This document shows positions 4,338-19,800 of a stretch of DNA of 23,254 bases, one piece after another. The DNA is from a virus (Duplodnaviria; Heunggongvirae; Uroviricota; Caudoviricetes). Below the pieces are notes generated by a model. The model was given only the letters and a program-made list of their open reading frames with translations, searched no databases and had not been told where the DNA came from. Each line of letters opens with the position of its first letter. Within the stretch, counting starts at the first letter, position 1. The translations under genes were made by a program, and so were the position numbers. The DNA is taken from positions 1 through 23,254 of the IMG/VR virus record IMGVR_UViG_2651869755_000006; one strand, 5' to 3'.

Positions 4338-5026
4338 TCACTGAGACACTATTAAAAGCGCGTTTTCCAGTCCGGCAAATGGATCTGAGACGCCTTCTGT
4401 CTGCTCCTGCTCCCACTGAAGAAGCGCATCATTCAGTGGCACTTTGACCCCCTGCGCACCGTAAACAGCTGAAACAATCTGGGCAGCCCGGATATCAGCC
4501 CGCTCGTCACCCAGCGGGCTGAACCTGTCAAATTCTGCCCACATCATGATTTCTGATGCGGACATTTCCCGGCGTAACTCTGACAATGTGCGCCCCATCC
4601 TGAGCGCCAGCATCATCAGAAAACGCATCCCCGGAAGCGCTACTTTTTTTTAACCTCGCCGGCATCACTGATCAGTTCCAGAGACTGCCGAAGAAGCCGC
4701 GCATGCACCGGGCCATACACGGCAATCACCTGTTCACGATCATCCTCTGAAAATACGGGTTGCAGTCCGGTATCACACAGAACATCAATGAACAGTTCAA
4801 CATCTGCCTCCAGATTTCGGCGGGCGCGCTCCGCAACGGATAACGGTGTCTCATCATCTTTTGCTTTAACGATCTCCTGCCAGCGCAACCAGGCTTCTGC
4901 AGAAGGTTCCCGTAACACAACCGTTGCTCCCTCCCATTCAGGCACATCAACGGTTTTATGGCGAAACCCCGACATCGTTGCCAGTGCCAGATTACGGATA
5001 TTTTTAGTCATCACATCCATCCTCAT
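4338..5026 (-). CDS. Tail assembly chaperone G-T fusion, made by programmed -1 frameshift (T segment 4338..4628 is in the -1 frame of G)
   Basis: ORF 4338..4628 has no Shine-Dalgarno, starts 12 nt after the G stop, and is exactly in the -1 frame relative to G; heptamer A AAA AAG lies 3 nt before the G stop. Confidence 0.65.
4640..5026 (-). CDS. G: Tail assembly chaperone (lambda gpG-like), 128 aa; start may be the downstream ATG at 5011
   Basis: Sits between major tail and tape measure genes; contains ATVVLREPSAEAWLRWQE, resembling the VTVTLSELSALQRIEHL region I recall in lambda G; ends ...EVKKK-stop on an A-run slippery site. Confidence 0.75.
   Translation of the reverse strand: MRMDVMTKNIRNLALATMSGFRHKTVDVPEWEGATVVLREPSAEAWLRWQEIVKAKDDETPLSVAERARRNLEADVELFIDVLCDTGLQPVFSEDDREQVIAVYGPVHARLLRQSLELISDAGEVKKK
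4643..4649 (-). other. Programmed -1 ribosomal frameshift slippery heptamer A AAA AAG
   Basis: Minus-strand mRNA reads GTT AAA AAA AAG TAG in the G frame; X XXY YYZ heptamer of the same type as in E. coli dnaX; shifting to -1 reads AAA AAA GTA GCG CTT CCG GGG ATG... into the T ORF. Confidence 0.6.
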
Positions 5027-7241: not shown

Positions 7242-7273
7242 CAGAAACTCCTGCCCGCAACACTGTGCGGGCA

Positions 7274-7296
7274 TAAAAAAACCGCGTCGGCGCGGT
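7274..7296 (-). terminator. Intrinsic terminator directly after the major capsid gene
   Basis: Minus-strand RNA: ACCGCG-CCGA-CGCGGU hairpin followed by UUUUUUU, about 20 nt after the capsid stop; a second hairpin (GCCCGCA..UGCGGGC, 7252..7271) follows. Confidence 0.6.
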
Positions 7297-7317
7297 CTGT
7301 AACTGAACAACGAGTGG

Positions 7318-8535
7318 TTATTTGCCAGTGAGCGCCTTGATGGCTGCCACATCTTCCAGCACACAGTCAAAACGATGGAAAGCCAGAAATGCCACCTGAT
7401 CAAACTCAGCATAACGCTCAACCAGACGTTTCAGTTCCATATAAGTAACGCGGCGAATGATAAAGCGGTTGAAATCCCCCAGGAAAATGAATTTTTTTCC
7501 GGTACCAATCCCGTCAATAGCCTGATCAATAACATAAGGGATCCCCAGCACAGTAGCCGGCGTACCGCCTGCAATATCCGGCAGCCATAACGGGCGTTTC
7601 TGTCCATCCTCCATCTCTTCAATAGTCTGCAATGTGGCATCATTGAATGCCCAGCGGTATTTCGGCCCACCACGATATGCCGGATCAATGGCATGTTTCA
7701 GGGCATTCATTTCTTTCCAGGTGAAAGCGGCAGAGGCTGCAGTCTGGATGGTTCCCGTCACCGACGCTGCCAGCCCTTTTGGCTGTAACGGTGATCCCGT
7801 TCCGGTCCCCTGAACCAGATATTTTGCCTCTCCACGACCAATACGCTGGGCAATACGGTTTGCCAGATAAGATTCAATATCCACCCCACTGTCCTGGAGC
7901 AGCTCATTGGACACACGAATTATTTTTGATGACAGCTTTTTAGCCCCCAGAATAGCGGTCCCGAACGTCACATCCTGTTCCGTTGCGGCTGTATTTTCCG
8001 CCAGCAGTTCGCCCTCTTCAGTCGTGCCATCAGACGTTGACCAGGTGATATCCTGCCCGGTTGATGTGGTCAGAAGTTGCGCCACACTGGCAATCCCGCC
8101 ATAAGCCTTCATGGTGTCAATGATTTTGTTACGCATCTGCGTGGGCACCGTATATCCGCCCTGAGAATCCGTTGTTACACTCTGAGCCCGCAGTTCACGC
8201 ATCAGATTACGCTCTTCAGCATTCAGTTCTGCAAATCCGGCACGCAGAAAACGGTTAAATGCCGCAGCGCGCTTCTCTTCCACCGCCTTTTTCCCGTTCT
8301 CCGCCTCATTATTCTGGCGCTCTTCCGGCCCGGACTCATCCACATATGCCTGATCCTGACGGCGCAACTCTTCTTCACGGGCGATTTGCTCATCCAGCGC
8401 ATCCAGCTCAGCTTTCGCCCTGTTCCACTCTGCCCGTTGCTCATCAGTCCATGCGTTATCACCAATTTTTTCATGCAGTGCACGCATATCCTTTGCAATG
8501 GTGTTTCGTTTTTGCTTCATCTCATGAAGTTTCAT
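7318..8535 (-). CDS. Major capsid protein, HK97 family, with N-terminal delta/scaffold-like domain, 405 aa
   Basis: About 100 aa of charged coiled-coil N-terminus followed by a capsid-like body; follows the prohead protease with no separate scaffold gene, the HK97 arrangement. Confidence 0.85.
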   Translation of the reverse strand: MKLHEMKQKRNTIAKDMRALHEKIGDNAWTDEQRAEWNRAKAELDALDEQIAREEELRRQDQAYVDESGPEERQNNEAENGKKAVEEKRAAAFNRFLRAGFAELNAEERNLMRELRAQSVTTDSQGGYTVPTQMRNKIIDTMKAYGGIASVAQLLTTSTGQDITWSTSDGTTEEGELLAENTAATEQDVTFGTAILGAKKLSSKIIRVSNELLQDSGVDIESYLANRIAQRIGRGEAKYLVQGTGTGSPLQPKGLAASVTGTIQTAASAAFTWKEMNALKHAIDPAYRGGPKYRWAFNDATLQTIEEMEDGQKRPLWLPDIAGGTPATVLGIPYVIDQAIDGIGTGKKFIFLGDFNRFIIRRVTYMELKRLVERYAEFDQVAFLAFHRFDCVLEDVAAIKALTGK

Positions 8536-14708: not shown

Positions 14709-14924
14709 TTACTCTCCCCGTGCAGCCTTACGACGGTCCTCTCTGATTTTGAAATACAGGTTAGTCAGATATGTCAGGAAGCCCAGAACCAGACTCCCCA
14801 GTACACCAATCGCAGCCCACTGTGACGGACTGACCTGATCAAGCCACTGTAAAAACCAGTAGCCAGCACTGCCTGCGGAGGTGCCGTAGGCAATGCCCGT
14901 TGAAATTTTATCCATGGATTTCAT
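14709..14924 (-). CDS. Pinholin, phage 21 S-type, with dual-start MKSM motif, 71 aa
   Basis: Reads [71 protein letters not shown], matching phage 21 S as I recall it; GGAGGTGA Shine-Dalgarno 4 nt upstream. The ORF-track N-terminal extension to 15023 is rejected. Confidence 0.85.
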
Positions 14925-15089: not shown

Positions 15090-15095
15090 GCATGT

Positions 15096-15125
15096 AAAAA
15101 GGCCCCAACACATGTGCGTGGGGCC
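15096..15125 (-). terminator. Minus-strand terminator-like hairpin upstream of the holin gene
   Basis: Minus-strand RNA: GGCCCCA-(11-nt loop)-UGGGGCC followed by UUUUUAC. Confidence 0.35.
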
Positions 15126-15325
15126 TGAGAGTATACATGGTTTCAGTCAACTGCATGGTGCCGGGTGCCTCCCGGTGAATTCAGTACCAGCACCTGAATC
15201 CGCGATTATCCCATATACCTACTCGCTGATTGCCCCTCCGCACAGGGGGATTCACCATGCCAGTTTCTTTTAACAAACTCCCCGCAAAACAGACAACTGT
15301 CAACCGTCTGAATTGTGAGACATTT

Positions 15326-15354
15326 AAAAAAAAGGCCCGCAAAAGCGAGCCGGG
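15326..15354 (-). terminator. Intrinsic terminator immediately downstream of the tRNA cluster
   Basis: Minus-strand RNA: GGCUCGC-UUUU-GCGGGCC hairpin followed by 8 U, about 12 nt after the tRNA-Arg 3' end. Confidence 0.55.
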
Positions 15355-15365
15355 AAAAATAAGTC

Positions 15366-15442
15366 TGGCGCGTTGTACTGGATTCGAACCAGTGACCGAT
15401 TGCTTAGAAGGCAATTGCTCTGTCCGGTTGAGCTAACAACGC
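15366..15442 (-). tRNA. tRNA-Arg, anticodon UCU (reads AGA)
   Basis: Hand-folded cloverleaf: acceptor GCGTTGT/ACAACGC + G + CCA, D-arm GCTC/GAGC, anticodon stem ATTGC/GCAAT with loop CTTCTAA, T-arm ACTGG-TTCGAAT-CCAGT. Confidence 0.8.
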
Positions 15443-15455
15443 AGGGTACAGATAA

Positions 15456-15532
15456 TGGACCGCCATCGAGGACTCGACCCCCGCGCAACCAGCTTCGAAG
15501 GCTGGTGCTCTATCCTGATGAGCTAATGGCGG
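15456..15532 (-). tRNA. tRNA-Arg-like, anticodon read as UCG (CGA), with non-canonical features
   Basis: Hand-folded: acceptor CCGCCAT/ATGGCGG (C1-G72) + T73 + CCA, D-arm GCTC/GAGC, anticodon stem CCAGC/GCTGG with loop CTTCGAA, T-loop GTCGAGT (G where T54 is expected). Confidence 0.55.
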
Positions 15533-15539
15533 TATGTGA

Positions 15540-15615
15540 TGGTGGCCCTTGCTGGATTTGAACCAGCGACCTGGCGATTATGAGTCGCTCGCTCTCACCT
15601 CTGAGCTAAAGGGCC
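15540..15615 (-). tRNA. tRNA-Ile2-like, anticodon CAU (ileX/ileZ-type, probably lysidine-modified to read AUA)
   Basis: Hand-folded: GGCCCTT acceptor, anticodon loop CTCATAA, T-arm GCTGG-TTCAAAT-CCAGC, ends GGGCCACCA; close to E. coli ileX as I recall it. Confidence 0.75.
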
Positions 15616-15735
15616 GGGCGCAGGATAATAACGTTACGAAATCAATGTTGCAAGCATTCAAAAATCACCTGGTTAAAAATCACCCTTAGCTCCTCCACCA
15701 GCGCATTCACCATGTCTATCCGAAATAAGTGGCAC

Positions 15736-15759
15736 AAAAAAACCCGCTTGTGGGCGGGT
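15736..15759 (-). terminator. tR'-like intrinsic terminator about 70 nt downstream of the Q-like gene (works on both strands)
   Basis: ACCCGC-(6-nt loop)-GCGGGT hairpin flanked by 7 A upstream and a T-rich tract downstream on the plus strand, so a U-tract follows it on either strand. Confidence 0.5.
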
Positions 15760-15813
15760 TTTGTTTGCTTTTGCCATCACGTACAAAATCGGCAAAATAT
15801 CAGATTTGCATGA

Positions 15814-15842
15814 AATATATGCCTTTCAATCTACTTTTGCAA
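15814..15842 (-). promoter_or_regulatory. Candidate late promoter (pR'-like) overlapping the 3' end of the Q-like gene
   Basis: Minus strand: TTGCAA (-35), 17-nt spacer, TATATT (-10); predicted transcript of ~70 nt would end at the terminator at 15736..15759, the lambdoid pR'/short-RNA/tR' layout. Confidence 0.35.
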
Positions 15843-16515
15843 CACTTTGCTTTGAAAATGCCGCCTTTTGTTTTGAACGTGTTCTCATTACAAACAATAA
15901 AGCCTCACTATCCAGTCGTTGAAAAATGTGTTTCATTGCAACCCAGTGACGAGTATATGTTTTGGACCAGTTTTTAGTTGTCACTCCCGCCAGTAATGCC
16001 AGCTCCTGGTATTCATAACCTTCCCCACCAAAAAGTTCTGCTTTTACTGCCTGCGCCGCCAGCCAGATTAATTTTTTCAGGCGTTCCTGCGTTTTCCCTG
16101 CAATTTTTCTGGTACCGGATTGAGTATTAAATTCATTCCACGCCCACTGTGTTATCGCGATCTGATATTCCCAACAAATACTCTCGCCGTAACACCACAA
16201 CAACCAGGCTTTATGATGCTCTTCAAGAGACAGCAAAGCCCGCCGCCATGATGATGTCGAAAACTCAACCGGGCTGACCAGGGCAATTGATGAGCCATTC
16301 GCCAGTGATTGTTTTCCCGGGATTGGTGGATTATCCCGCGTTATCATTTTTCCAGTCACTTCATCGCGGTACCGGATTTTTTTTCGCCTGTAACGCCCTG
16401 TATCGAACATGGCATTCTCCTGCCAGGCTTCAAGCTGACCTTTTGTTGCCCCACTCAAATCAGCGGTGGCGATAATGAGCTGCTCACGCACAAACTGTAA
16501 ATACTGGTTATTCAT
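15826..16515 (-). CDS. Putative late-gene antiterminator Q, 229 aa from the ATG at 16515
   Basis: Position directly downstream of rusA and upstream of the pR'/tR'-like elements, tRNAs and lysis cassette; ATGA overlap with the rusA stop and GGAG Shine-Dalgarno. Family assignment is positional, not by sequence recognition. Confidence 0.55.
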   Translation of the reverse strand: MNNQYLQFVREQLIIATADLSGATKGQLEAWQENAMFDTGRYRRKKIRYRDEVTGKMITRDNPPIPGKQSLANGSSIALVSPVEFSTSSWRRALLSLEEHHKAWLLWCYGESICWEYQIAITQWAWNEFNTQSGTRKIAGKTQERLKKLIWLAAQAVKAELFGGEGYEYQELALLAGVTTKNWSKTYTRHWVAMKHIFQRLDSEALLFVMRTRSKQKAAFSKQSVAKVD

Positions 16516-16877
16516 GCGCACTCCAGTTCTGTGATTTTTATCCCCAGCCGCCCACCAGGAACGAGCTGACCGCGCACAATATTGATTTCATCAAACTGCT
16601 CGTCGTCTATGAGAAGTCCGGCATGCGTCAGCGCATCCAGTGGTGCTTTCAGGATATTGTCCAGGTCACGACGGCGCTTATCCGGTGGCTCTGCAATAAT
16701 TTTTATTGCCAGCCGTCCGGACAGGCTTAATTTCAGCCGCTGCTGGCGAACAATAAGCGCCACAGCCCGGCGATAACGCTTTCCCTCCTCCGAGATAAAA
16801 TATGTGCTGCCACGGCGTCGCCAGTAAGTGTTCACCGTCGGCGGGTAAGGCAAAACAAATTCTATGCGTTCGGTCAT
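16512..16877 (-). CDS. rusA: RusA-family Holliday junction resolvase, 121 aa
   Basis: ...PDKRRRDLDNILKAPLDALTHAGLLIDDEQ... closely parallels the [28 protein letters not shown] region of E. coli RusA as I recall it; typical position just upstream of Q. Confidence 0.85.
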   Translation of the reverse strand: MTERIEFVLPYPPTVNTYWRRRGSTYFISEEGKRYRRAVALIVRQQRLKLSLSGRLAIKIIAEPPDKRRRDLDNILKAPLDALTHAGLLIDDEQFDEINIVRGQLVPGGRLGIKITELECA

Positions 16878-18216: not shown

Positions 18217-18288
18217 CGGTTGTCTCTGCTGGCGCAGCAGGTGCCAGTTGTTCAGGCTGGCGTGCGGCAATATTGTCTCTGATTTCTG

Positions 18289-18316
18289 TTGTCGTCAACA
18301 GGCAGCGTGCTATCAT
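18289..18316 (+). promoter_or_regulatory. Candidate sigma-70 promoter for parDE
   Basis: TTGTCG (-35), 16-nt spacer, TATCAT (-10), about 35 nt upstream of the parD start. Confidence 0.35.
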
Positions 18317-18351
18317 CGAATAGTGTTCTATCCTACTCCGTGAGGTTTACC

Positions 18352-18609
18352 ATGCGTACAACCCAACAATTCAGCATTACATTAACTAACGAGATGGCTG
18401 ACATGGTGCGCGCCCGTGTGGCTTCCGGTGCCTATGCTTCAGAAAGCGAGGTCATTCGTGAAGGGCTTCGCGCACTGAATGAGCGCGATAAAGCAATCGA
18501 AGCGTGGTTAACGCATTCAGCCGCCCCCTCTCTTGATTCTATCCGCGAAAATCCAAACAACGGACGCTCCATTTCACAGGTTCGCGCCGCGATTCGATCC
18601 GGGAAGTAA
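18352..18609 (+). CDS. parD: ParD-family ribbon-helix-helix antitoxin, 85 aa
   Basis: GAGG Shine-Dalgarno 7 nt before the ATG at 18352; ...RARVASGAYASESEVIREGLRALNERDKAIEAWL... matches the ParD motif (G-Y-SASEV-R-LR-L); immediately followed by a ParE-like ORF. Confidence 0.7.
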   Translation: MRTTQQFSITLTNEMADMVRARVASGAYASESEVIREGLRALNERDKAIEAWLTHSAAPSLDSIRENPNNGRSISQVRAAIRSGK

Positions 18610-18614
18610 TCTGC

Positions 18615-18914
18615 ATGACATTTGAAGTCATCATTACCCCCGAGGCCGAACAGCAGATAATAAACCTGCACGGATATATAACGGAGAAAGCAGGAAGCGT
18701 CATTGCTGACAATTATGCCAATGCGCTTCTTGATTATCTTGATGGGTTTTCTACATTCCCACATCGGGGCAATAAACGCGATGATATTCGCCAGGGAATG
18801 CGAGTAACTCACTTCCGCCACAGAACGATTATTGCTTTTGCCGTTGATGGCAATAAAGTCTTTATCGCTGGCGTTTACCATGGAGGGCAAAGTTATGAAT
18901 CTGACTTTTTATAG
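18615..18914 (+). CDS. parE: ParE/RelE-superfamily toxin, 99 aa
   Basis: Starts 5 nt after the ParD stop; C-terminal ...RVTHFRHRTIIAFAVDGNKVFIAGVYHGGQSYESDFL resembles the ParE/RelE fold signature. Confidence 0.65.
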   Translation: MTFEVIITPEAEQQIINLHGYITEKAGSVIADNYANALLDYLDGFSTFPHRGNKRDDIRQGMRVTHFRHRTIIAFAVDGNKVFIAGVYHGGQSYESDFL

Positions 18915-18975
18915 TTTATATTTTCACTAACAAAAAACTTAAATAACCAAGAAACACTTATAAAAGGGCTTCTAA

Positions 18976-19329
18976 ATGAATAAAACAATTTGTTTTCTAT
19001 TGGTTTTTGCAATTTCAGGATGCGTCAACCCTTATAACTACAGAGAAGAACAAAATGTTATTATCTCGTTCAAAACAAATTCTCCACCACAAGAAATACA
19101 AGAATGCATTCTCAGTGAGTGGCAGCGTACACCTCTCTTAGCCACTATCACGTCTCAAAAAATTGGCAAGTATTACAGCGTATTAGCGGTTGCAGATAAT
19201 GCCGACATTTATAAGTTGGCAGATGGTTCTACTATCATTGATTTTTATTCCCTTCGAGGGGGCTTAGACCCCACCAATGGGAAAAGCAAGAGGATTCAGG
19301 GAATTAAATCATGTATTAGCACTAAATAA
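18976..19329 (+). CDS. Putative lipoprotein of unknown function in an AT-rich cargo segment, 117 aa
   Basis: MNKTICFLLVFAISGC signal peptide with lipobox Cys; gene and its 61-bp leader are visibly more AT-rich than flanking phage DNA. Confidence 0.6.
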   Translation: MNKTICFLLVFAISGCVNPYNYREEQNVIISFKTNSPPQEIQECILSEWQRTPLLATITSQKIGKYYSVLAVADNADIYKLADGSTIIDFYSLRGGLDPTNGKSKRIQGIKSCISTK

Positions 19330-19404
19330 TCATCAGTTCGAACCCAGAAACAGCCAAATAGATTTTATCTCAGGTGCGTTGAGGATGCCTGACACATCAG
19401 AGGT

Positions 19405-19433: not shown

Positions 19434-19589
19434 TTACTCCTCAGGTTCGTAAGCTGTGAAGACAGTGACCTCCGTCTGGCCGGTTCGGATTCGTACCTCG
19501 CAGAGGTCTTTCCTCGTTACCAGTGCCGTCACAATGACGGTAATACAGATGACGATCAGGGCGACTAACATCGCCTTTTGCTGCTTCAT
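19434..19589 (-). CDS. hok: Hok-family type I toxin, 51 aa
   Basis: MKQQKAMLVALIVICITVIVTALVTRKDLCEVRIRTGQTEVTVFTAYEPEE is near-identical to E. coli Hok/Gef family proteins as I recall them; AAGGAG Shine-Dalgarno 9 nt upstream. Confidence 0.85.
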   Translation of the reverse strand: MKQQKAMLVALIVICITVIVTALVTRKDLCEVRIRTGQTEVTVFTAYEPEE

Positions 19590-19646
19590 AGCCTGCTTCT
19601 CCTTGCCTTTCGGCGCGTAAGAGGCTAACCTAGATTTGCCGTTCAT
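19434..19646 (-). CDS. mok: Mok-like in-frame upstream reading frame overlapping hok, 70 aa
   Basis: In-frame ATG 19 codons upstream of the hok start, as in chromosomal mokC/hokC pairs. Confidence 0.5.
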   Translation of the reverse strand: MNGKSRLASYAPKGKEKQAMKQQKAMLVALIVICITVIVTALVTRKDLCEVRIRTGQTEVTVFTAYEPEE

Positions 19647-19800
19647 AGATTGAGCCTCAGATTAATGTTAAGCGTCTTGCCGGACGCGTAATGTTAACTG
19701 GGGCTTTTCTCTATCTGCCTTTTGGTGTTCATGCCTGAGACAGATAGCCTCAAGCACCCGCAGCAATTCTACTTAACTCTCCTTTTCCCGCAAACCGTTT

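Follow-up and report, generated by a model that had tools for sequence, protein, structure and literature searches.

An ileZ-argN-argO tRNA cluster at a lambdoid prophage locus in its toxin-free form, with a rare G54 allele of the tRNA-Arg(UCG) gene argN

The DNA analysed here (hereafter the window) is the whole 23,254-nt stretch of IMG/VR record IMGVR_UViG_2651869755_000006, a mosaic lambdoid prophage with an HK97-type head. Its best match among complete RefSeq genomes is 96.9% identical over 89% of its length, and none is identical. ARAGORN finds exactly three tRNA genes in these 23 kb, all on the minus strand and lying together between the late antiterminator gene Q and the lysis genes. The features of the locus, listed from Q towards the lysis cassette, are as follows.

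15826..16521, minus strand: late antiterminator gene Q (Pfam PF06323, 305.6 bits), upstream of the tRNA genes
15814..15842, minus strand: pR'-like promoter, TTGCAA-17-TATATT, at the 3' end of Q (consensus scan)
15739..15762, minus strand: tR'-like hairpin, AAACCCGC-CCACAA-GCGGGTTT and then a run of T, lying after Q and ahead of the tRNA genes (the scan reports the hairpin on the plus strand; the minus-strand reading has T7)
15625..15653, minus strand: sigma-70-like promoter, TTGCAA-17 nt-TATTAT, ending 9 nt before the 5' end of ileZ (consensus scan)
15540..15615, minus strand: ileZ, anticodon CAU, read as tRNA-Ile2, a lysidine-dependent AUA reader (ARAGORN; Rfam 70.6 bits; CCA encoded)
15456..15532, minus strand: argN, tRNA-Arg with anticodon UCG (ARAGORN tRNA-Arg(tcg); Rfam 51.2 bits; CCA encoded)
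15366..15442, minus strand: argO, tRNA-Arg with anticodon UCU, an AGA/AGG reader (ARAGORN tRNA-Arg(tct); Rfam 70.1 bits; CCA encoded)
15326..15351, minus strand: intrinsic terminator after argO, GGCTCGC-TTTT-GCGGGCC then T8 (consensus scan)
15090..15289, minus strand: STnc100-family RNA element, full-length match (Rfam RF02076, 140.2 bits), between the tRNA terminator and the holin gene
14709..14924, minus strand: holin S gene of the P21 type, first gene of the lysis cassette (Pfam PF04971, 122.2 bits)

Downstream of the cluster, Pfam matches identify the P21-type holin, DUF1327, lysozyme and Rz in turn. The positions of the two features next to and behind Q suggest that the 15814..15842 promoter is pR' and that the 15739..15762 hairpin is tR'.

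An earlier reading of this DNA, made from the letters without database searches, had described a three-tRNA cluster at this place, where Shiga-toxin phages carry ileZ-argN-argO, and had taken its outer members for tRNA-Ile2(CAU) and tRNA-Arg(UCU). ARAGORN and Rfam place the three genes on the minus strand at precisely the coordinates of that reading, and the outer two genes score 70.6 and 70.1 bits. All three exceed the gathering score of Rfam RF00005 (29 bits), with E-values from 7.6e-14 to 1.7e-08, and all three encode their 3' CCA end. A 401-nt query covering the cluster matches 289 phage records, mostly of Stx2-converting phages, several of which carry features named ileZ, argN and argO; in AP012539 (Stx2a_WGPS6) it is the equivalent DNA that is annotated with these names. 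Identity of the window cluster to those of Stx2 phages and of PhiR49_2 is 91-98%, and in an alignment with the Stx2a phage and PhiR49_2 the mean column identity is 96%, with ileZ and argO almost invariant. Among complete E. coli genomes, 2,953 of 5,426 match the query, at up to 12 places per genome, and nine records agree with it at all 401 nt. The window has the three anticodons in the order CAU - UCG - UCU, all on a single strand, with Q/tR' on one side and, on the other, the lysis genes (stx in Stx phages). This order recurs in 97 of 159 pooled IMG/VR segments; an unbiased, ileZ-anchored subset of 73 loci has it at 41. The three genes are thus almost certainly the ileZ-argN-argO cluster of lambdoid phages. 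This cluster is already known, and because it has long been annotated in Stx and other lambdoid prophages, finding it in the window adds little. As no paper using the names ileZ, argN and argO was found in the literature searched, they are taken here from GenBank annotation; reportedly they originate with Plunkett et al. 1999, for phage 933W.

The general layout of the locus is promoter, ileZ-argN-argO, terminator, the stx genes where present, STnc100 and lysis genes, and the window has it without stx. In the Stx2a phage the STnc100 element follows just after stx2B (4723-4934 of the extracted locus L002). Since the stx operon there sits between the tRNA terminator and STnc100, the window is the toxin-free form of the locus. 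The cluster of Stx2a_WGPS6 (AP012539) is 92.7% identical to the window over 353 nt and resembles it in genes, order, strand, spacers (7 and 13 nt), anticodons, the upstream -10 element and the terminator, but has stx2AB between the terminator and STnc100/holin, where the window has no stx genes. Closer still is PhiR49_2 (PV340570), which is 98.5% identical over the cluster and, together with non-Stx lambdoid prophages of commensal and ExPEC E. coli, shares with the window the layout Q - tRNAs - STnc100 - holin S - DUF1327 - lysozyme - Rz; it differs in the segment upstream of the -10 element and in having T54 in argN, where the window has G54. In many lambdoid E. coli prophages the operon lies between Q (with pR' and tR') and the lysis genes, with the toxin genes directly downstream of it in Stx phages. 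Phages SfI, Sf6 and P21 carry Asn-GUU and Thr-UGU tRNAs downstream of Q (PMC3636060); these are alike in position and in their proposed role, the reading of codons used more by the phage than by the host, and differ in the tRNA species.

Elsewhere in the window, a sok antitoxin RNA (Rfam RF01794, 111 bits; 19584-19759, minus strand) adjoins a small hok-like ORF (19434-19646, minus strand), and in a related prophage, that of NZ_AP022105, hokD is annotated at the equivalent place. The tRNA cluster of the NZ_AP022105 prophage is identical to that of the window, and its early region contains queH, coding for epoxyqueuosine reductase, a tRNA modification enzyme (23768-24433 of locus L123). No queH counterpart was found in the window, of which positions 18266-19373 are without a match to the NZ_AP022105 prophage; a 152-aa ORF in this differing segment (18432-18890, minus strand) has no Pfam match.

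The -35/-10 pair in front of ileZ is kept across several otherwise different upstream contexts. The 9 nt between the -10 element and ileZ (15616-15624, minus strand) are the G+C-rich CCTGCGCCC, which resembles the discriminator of stringently controlled tRNA and rRNA promoters, and a C-rich version of this stretch is kept in the most common upstream contexts. In a Stx2a prophage, differential RNA sequencing has located a tRNA start site between tR' and stx2AB (PMC7547250). At the other end, the strong terminator that had been noticed by eye after the cluster was recovered by the consensus scan as a stem at 15351-15334 on the minus strand, with 7 pairs (6 of them G-C) and a 4-nt loop, followed by TTTTTTTT; the terminator is conserved at sequence level in both the Stx2a phage and PhiR49_2. 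The operon of the window is probably transcribed from its own sigma-70 promoter, with transcription stopping at the terminator after argO, and the lysogen can probably express it. Once the prophage is induced, polymerase that has been modified by Q and starts from pR' is expected to continue across the operon and beyond its terminator. The precursor would be cut by host RNase P and 3' nucleases, and CCA addition would not be needed.

Two of the three genes are phage-borne paralogues of host genes. ileZ is identical to K-12 ileX at 68 of 76 positions (89%), with a compensatory change at 6:67 and with C4-G69 and C5-G68 kept, the two pairs that are determinants for TilS. The ARAGORN label of elongator tRNA-Met, which derives from the anticodon only, is ruled out by the identity to ileX; because of this identity and the retained TilS pairs ileZ would be a reader of AUA, and the PGAP label of the identical sequence is likewise tRNA-Ile. 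At the top of its anticodon stem ileZ has an A27-C43 mismatch where K-12 ileX has G27-U43. The mismatch is kept in 82 of 83 ileZ copies of a first IMG/VR scan, a later ileZ-anchored scan having fixed position 43 in its pattern. The anticodon loop of argO is identical to that of K-12 argU, and the two read the same codons.

For argN the situation is different, as it has no counterpart among the Arg tRNA genes of K-12. The Arg tRNA genes of K-12 include CCG and CCU anticodons, and those shown in the K-12 annotation have ACG and UCU. [quoted passage not shown] The same reading had called argN non-canonical, which is right in relation to the host; the UCG anticodon itself is the standard one of argN, shared by the argN genes of the Stx2a phage, PhiR49_2 and the window, so the gene is unusual for the host yet canonical for its kind, and only G54 is odd.

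The hand read on which that description was based (15491-15505, agcttcgaaggctgg) is correct and gives CCAGC-CUUCGAA-GCUGG on the minus strand, with the anticodon U34 C35 G36 at 15498-15496; the anticodon loop CUUCGAA, C1-G72, U73 and G54 were all read correctly. The acceptor stem is CCGCCAU/AUGGCGG, and the T arm, in the Rfam alignment, is C49GGGG53 / G54 U55 C56 G57 A58 G59 U60 / C61CUCG65. All 21 stem pairs are intact, with no mismatches and a single G-U pair. Among 18 conserved positions checked, G54 is the only deviation, A14, G18, G19, A20, U33, the anticodon, G53, U55, C56, R57, A58, C61 and the CCA end being intact. Broken stems, loss of several invariant bases, truncation or a missing anticodon arm, by which a tRNA pseudogene would be recognised, are thus not seen in argN. 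The centroid fold is a cloverleaf of -29.5 kcal/mol; the structure energy z-score is weak (-1.7), such z-scores being no useful test for tRNAs, and the minimum free energy (MFE) fold is not a cloverleaf for two of the three real tRNAs. By Rfam the window allele (51.2 bits) ranks between those of PhiR49_2, which has T54 (56.2 bits), and of the Stx2a phage AP012539 (43.0 bits). The last of these has two G-U acceptor pairs, an A51-C63 mismatch and T54, whereas the window gene has a fully Watson-Crick acceptor stem, G51-U63 and G54. ARAGORN, Rfam and the PGAP annotation, in which the identical sequence is labelled tRNA-Arg with no pseudogene flag, all agree, so that neither a pseudogene call nor a different anticodon was obtained.

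The elements by which ArgRS recognises its tRNA are A20 in the D loop, C35, and G36 or U36. All are present in argN, whose D loop AUCAGGAUA puts A at position 20, a base that is invariant across 41 distinct sequences of the argN family. The minor element, the discriminator base, departs from the rule: E. coli tRNA-Arg has A73 or G73 (A73 in K-12 argQ, G73 in argU and also in argO), and U73 together with C1-G72 makes argN atypical. argN is predicted to be charged by ArgRS, and its decoding range and the modification of its U34 are likewise inferred. In the alignment of the 41 family sequences 97.1% of the pair cells are standard pairs, versus 29-54% when the 3' partners are slid. Three double compensatory changes occur in it, all contributed by relatives with a UUU anticodon (described below) and probably reflecting one event, and none was found within argN proper. 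Because the compensatory changes come only from the UUU relatives, covariation supports the argN scaffold and not the G54 allele.

T54 is near universal in tRNAs and normally forms a reverse-Hoogsteen pair with A58. The window gene lacks the canonical elongator T loop (T54-Psi55-C56-R57-A58, with T54 paired to A58), having G54 U55 C56 G57 A58, with G54 at window position 15478. The frequency of the allele was assessed with a 41-nt probe centred on position 54, such that each 28-nt megablast seed word includes that position. The G54 probe matches 10 of 5,426 complete E. coli genomes, and the T54 version in the same context matches 782. T54 is also found in both aligned phage copies (PhiR49_2 and the Stx2a phage) and in 88 of 96 callable argN copies of the IMG/VR sample. 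By these counts G54 is a rare derived allele, seen on at least two backgrounds of argN, and does not characterise the gene as such. Apart from this uncommon T-loop change, U54 to G, the argN gene of the window is intact.

How strongly the middle slot of the cluster is maintained elsewhere bears on the fate of this allele. Because the pattern of the first IMG/VR scan required UCG as well as portions of both the D and the T arm, anticodon conservation was measured in the ileZ-anchored scan, in which the slot was not pre-selected and of which the first 80 listed rows gave 73 usable loci. The slot holds a UCG tRNA at 44 of these, a relative with a UUU anticodon at 7 (about 10%), a UCU anticodon at 1 and no callable tRNA at 21 (about 29%). 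In the pooled sample, 30 of 94 callable argN copies have a mismatched stem pair or differ at a conserved position, and at some loci the anticodon arm has been replaced or deleted. Nucleotide diversity (pi) is 0.004 for the free 5' part of ileZ, 0.014 for argO, 0.065 for argN (about five times argO) and 0.21 for the argN-argO spacer. The high diversity, the damaged copies and the wrecked, chimeric and UUU forms at other loci make argN the least constrained member of the cluster.

These other forms are of several kinds. A common pseudogene class (L246, L250, L257, L260, L262 and about 15 more loci) keeps both halves of the acceptor stem and the CCA, has the anticodon arm replaced by unrelated sequence (…GAAGAGCAGACGACACGATAACAGGGTTGTTGG…) and has a degenerate T loop. 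At L256, L272 and L301 a hybrid gene joins the 5' half of argN to the 3' half of argO, with the junction in the shared GCCUUC of the anticodon loop and the acceptor stem unpaired; it looks as if recombination between argN and argO had deleted the intervening DNA. An otherwise normal argN at L261 (IMG/VR 2671181028_000005) has the loop CUUCUAA, in which a single G36-to-U change has turned UCG into UCU, so that this cluster holds two UCU Arg tRNAs. The UUU relatives (L247 at about 7270-7350, L268, L269, L270 and others, and PhiR47_1, PV340566, 15274-15426) have the acceptor, D and T arms of argN, differ by the compensatory double changes at 7:66, 27:43 and 30:40, and are followed by tRNA-Thr(UGU), often with tRNA-Gly(UCC), in place of argO; in some records, that of PhiR47_1 among them, they are annotated as tRNA-Lys. 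A scan of genome contigs with the 17-nt anticodon stem-loop of argN was too unspecific, the matches listed including unrelated tRNA-Arg(UCG) genes and chance G+C-rich matches; among these matches argN was found at one locus, L232, in a MAG.

The most serious alternative is that the window argN is itself decaying, that G54 cripples the T loop, and that only ileZ and argO matter, argN being kept because it lies between them. The low constraint on argN keeps this alternative alive for the G54 allele, though we regard it as unlikely. It is favoured by the rarity of G54 beside T54 in complete genomes, by the 21 slots with no callable tRNA and the 30 damaged copies, and by the fivefold diversity relative to argO. 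It also gains from the MFE fold, in which a G54-U60 pair would leave a T loop of 5 nt (the canonical loop is less stable by only 0.4 kcal/mol), and from one G54-carrying prophage that is clearly defective, its capsid gene being frameshifted and its integrase disrupted by an IS element. A 2026 survey of stx2i prophages, moreover, records "tRNA-pseudo" variants of the Ile-Arg-Arg cluster (PMC13641118). For the window copy, however, the proposal made from the sequence that it might be a decayed argN-like gene fits poorly, common as decay is in the slot of other prophages. The stem pairs, the other conserved bases, the anticodon and the CCA end are all in place, the gene outscores the T54 allele of the Stx2a phage, PGAP sets no pseudogene flag on it, and the capsid ORF of the window is full length. 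In addition, many conserved T-loop bases of tRNAPhe reportedly proved dispensable for EF-Tu binding and elongation in vitro (Nazarenko et al. 1994). G54 may weaken the elbow formed by the T and D loops and probably does not abolish the function of argN; we think it rather likely that the G54 copy is still functional.

A comparison of codon usage, proposed in the earlier reading, bears on what the operon is for. Thirty window ORFs taken as genes were compared with one 50-kb region of K-12, which is not the actual host, and the window genes use AUA, AGA/AGG and CGA/CGG, the five codons that the cluster would read, two to six times as often as ordinary K-12 genes do. Per 1000 codons, CGA+CGG amount to 20.8 in the window, 8.7 in ordinary K-12 genes and 1.3 in ribosomal and elongation factor genes (odds ratio (OR) 2.4, p=7e-8); the corresponding values are 12.3, 2.1 and 1.1 for AGA+AGG (OR 5.9) and 6.7, 1.9 and 0.4 for AUA (OR 3.5). 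CGA alone is modestly enriched (40 codons, OR 1.8, p=0.035) and CGG more so (93 codons, OR 2.8), so decoding of CGG by wobble may be no less important than the direct decoding of CGA. In the mechanism we propose, host TilS would convert the CAU anticodon of ileZ such that the tRNA-Ile2 reads AUA, argN would read CGA by Watson-Crick pairing and CGG by wobble, and argO would read AGA and AGG. Since the host seldom uses these five codons and the window genes over-use them, the operon probably tops up scarce decoding for phage and other acquired genes.

Its main role might instead lie elsewhere, by analogy with phage tRNAs in other systems: in replenishing Arg and Ile tRNAs cut by anticodon nucleases (of the colicin D type, or of defence systems), or in serving AT-rich acquired genes of the lysogen. 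A conserved promoter and terminator of its own, which make expression in the lysogen without Q possible, would suit such a role, as would the presence of up to a dozen matching places in one genome and the early window genes, in which the five codons are no less frequent than in the late ones. We consider it improbable all the same, given that no nuclease or defence gene is linked to the cluster in the window or at related loci and that the codon usage of the phage genes is what a simple supply role would lead one to expect. That the tRNA-like folds arose by chance or are not genes can be dismissed, being refuted by the ARAGORN calls and Rfam E-values, by thousands of conserved homologues with annotated tRNAs, and by the slid-register controls. 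Taken as a whole, an ileZ-argN-argO operon supplying rare-codon tRNAs, with an intact argN that carries G54, is the explanation we hold with good confidence.

The host reportedly reads CGA through an inefficient I-A wobble, a finding credited to Curran (1995), and argN would be the only Watson-Crick reader of CGA in E. coli, as well as a second reader of CGG. The low constraint on argN bears on whether it contributes to the yield of late gene products or of toxin. A tentative further idea, which we hold as possible and not as likely, is that the argN scaffold serves lambdoid prophages as an evolvable anticodon cassette, with UCG, UCU and UUU set on arms that share C1-G72, U73 and A20. If so, the G54 allele would be a further state through which a gene drifts when selection acts on it only at times; and should the UUU and the UCG form each receive the amino acid that its anticodon specifies, the cassette would be a case of natural tRNA identity switching on a mobile element.
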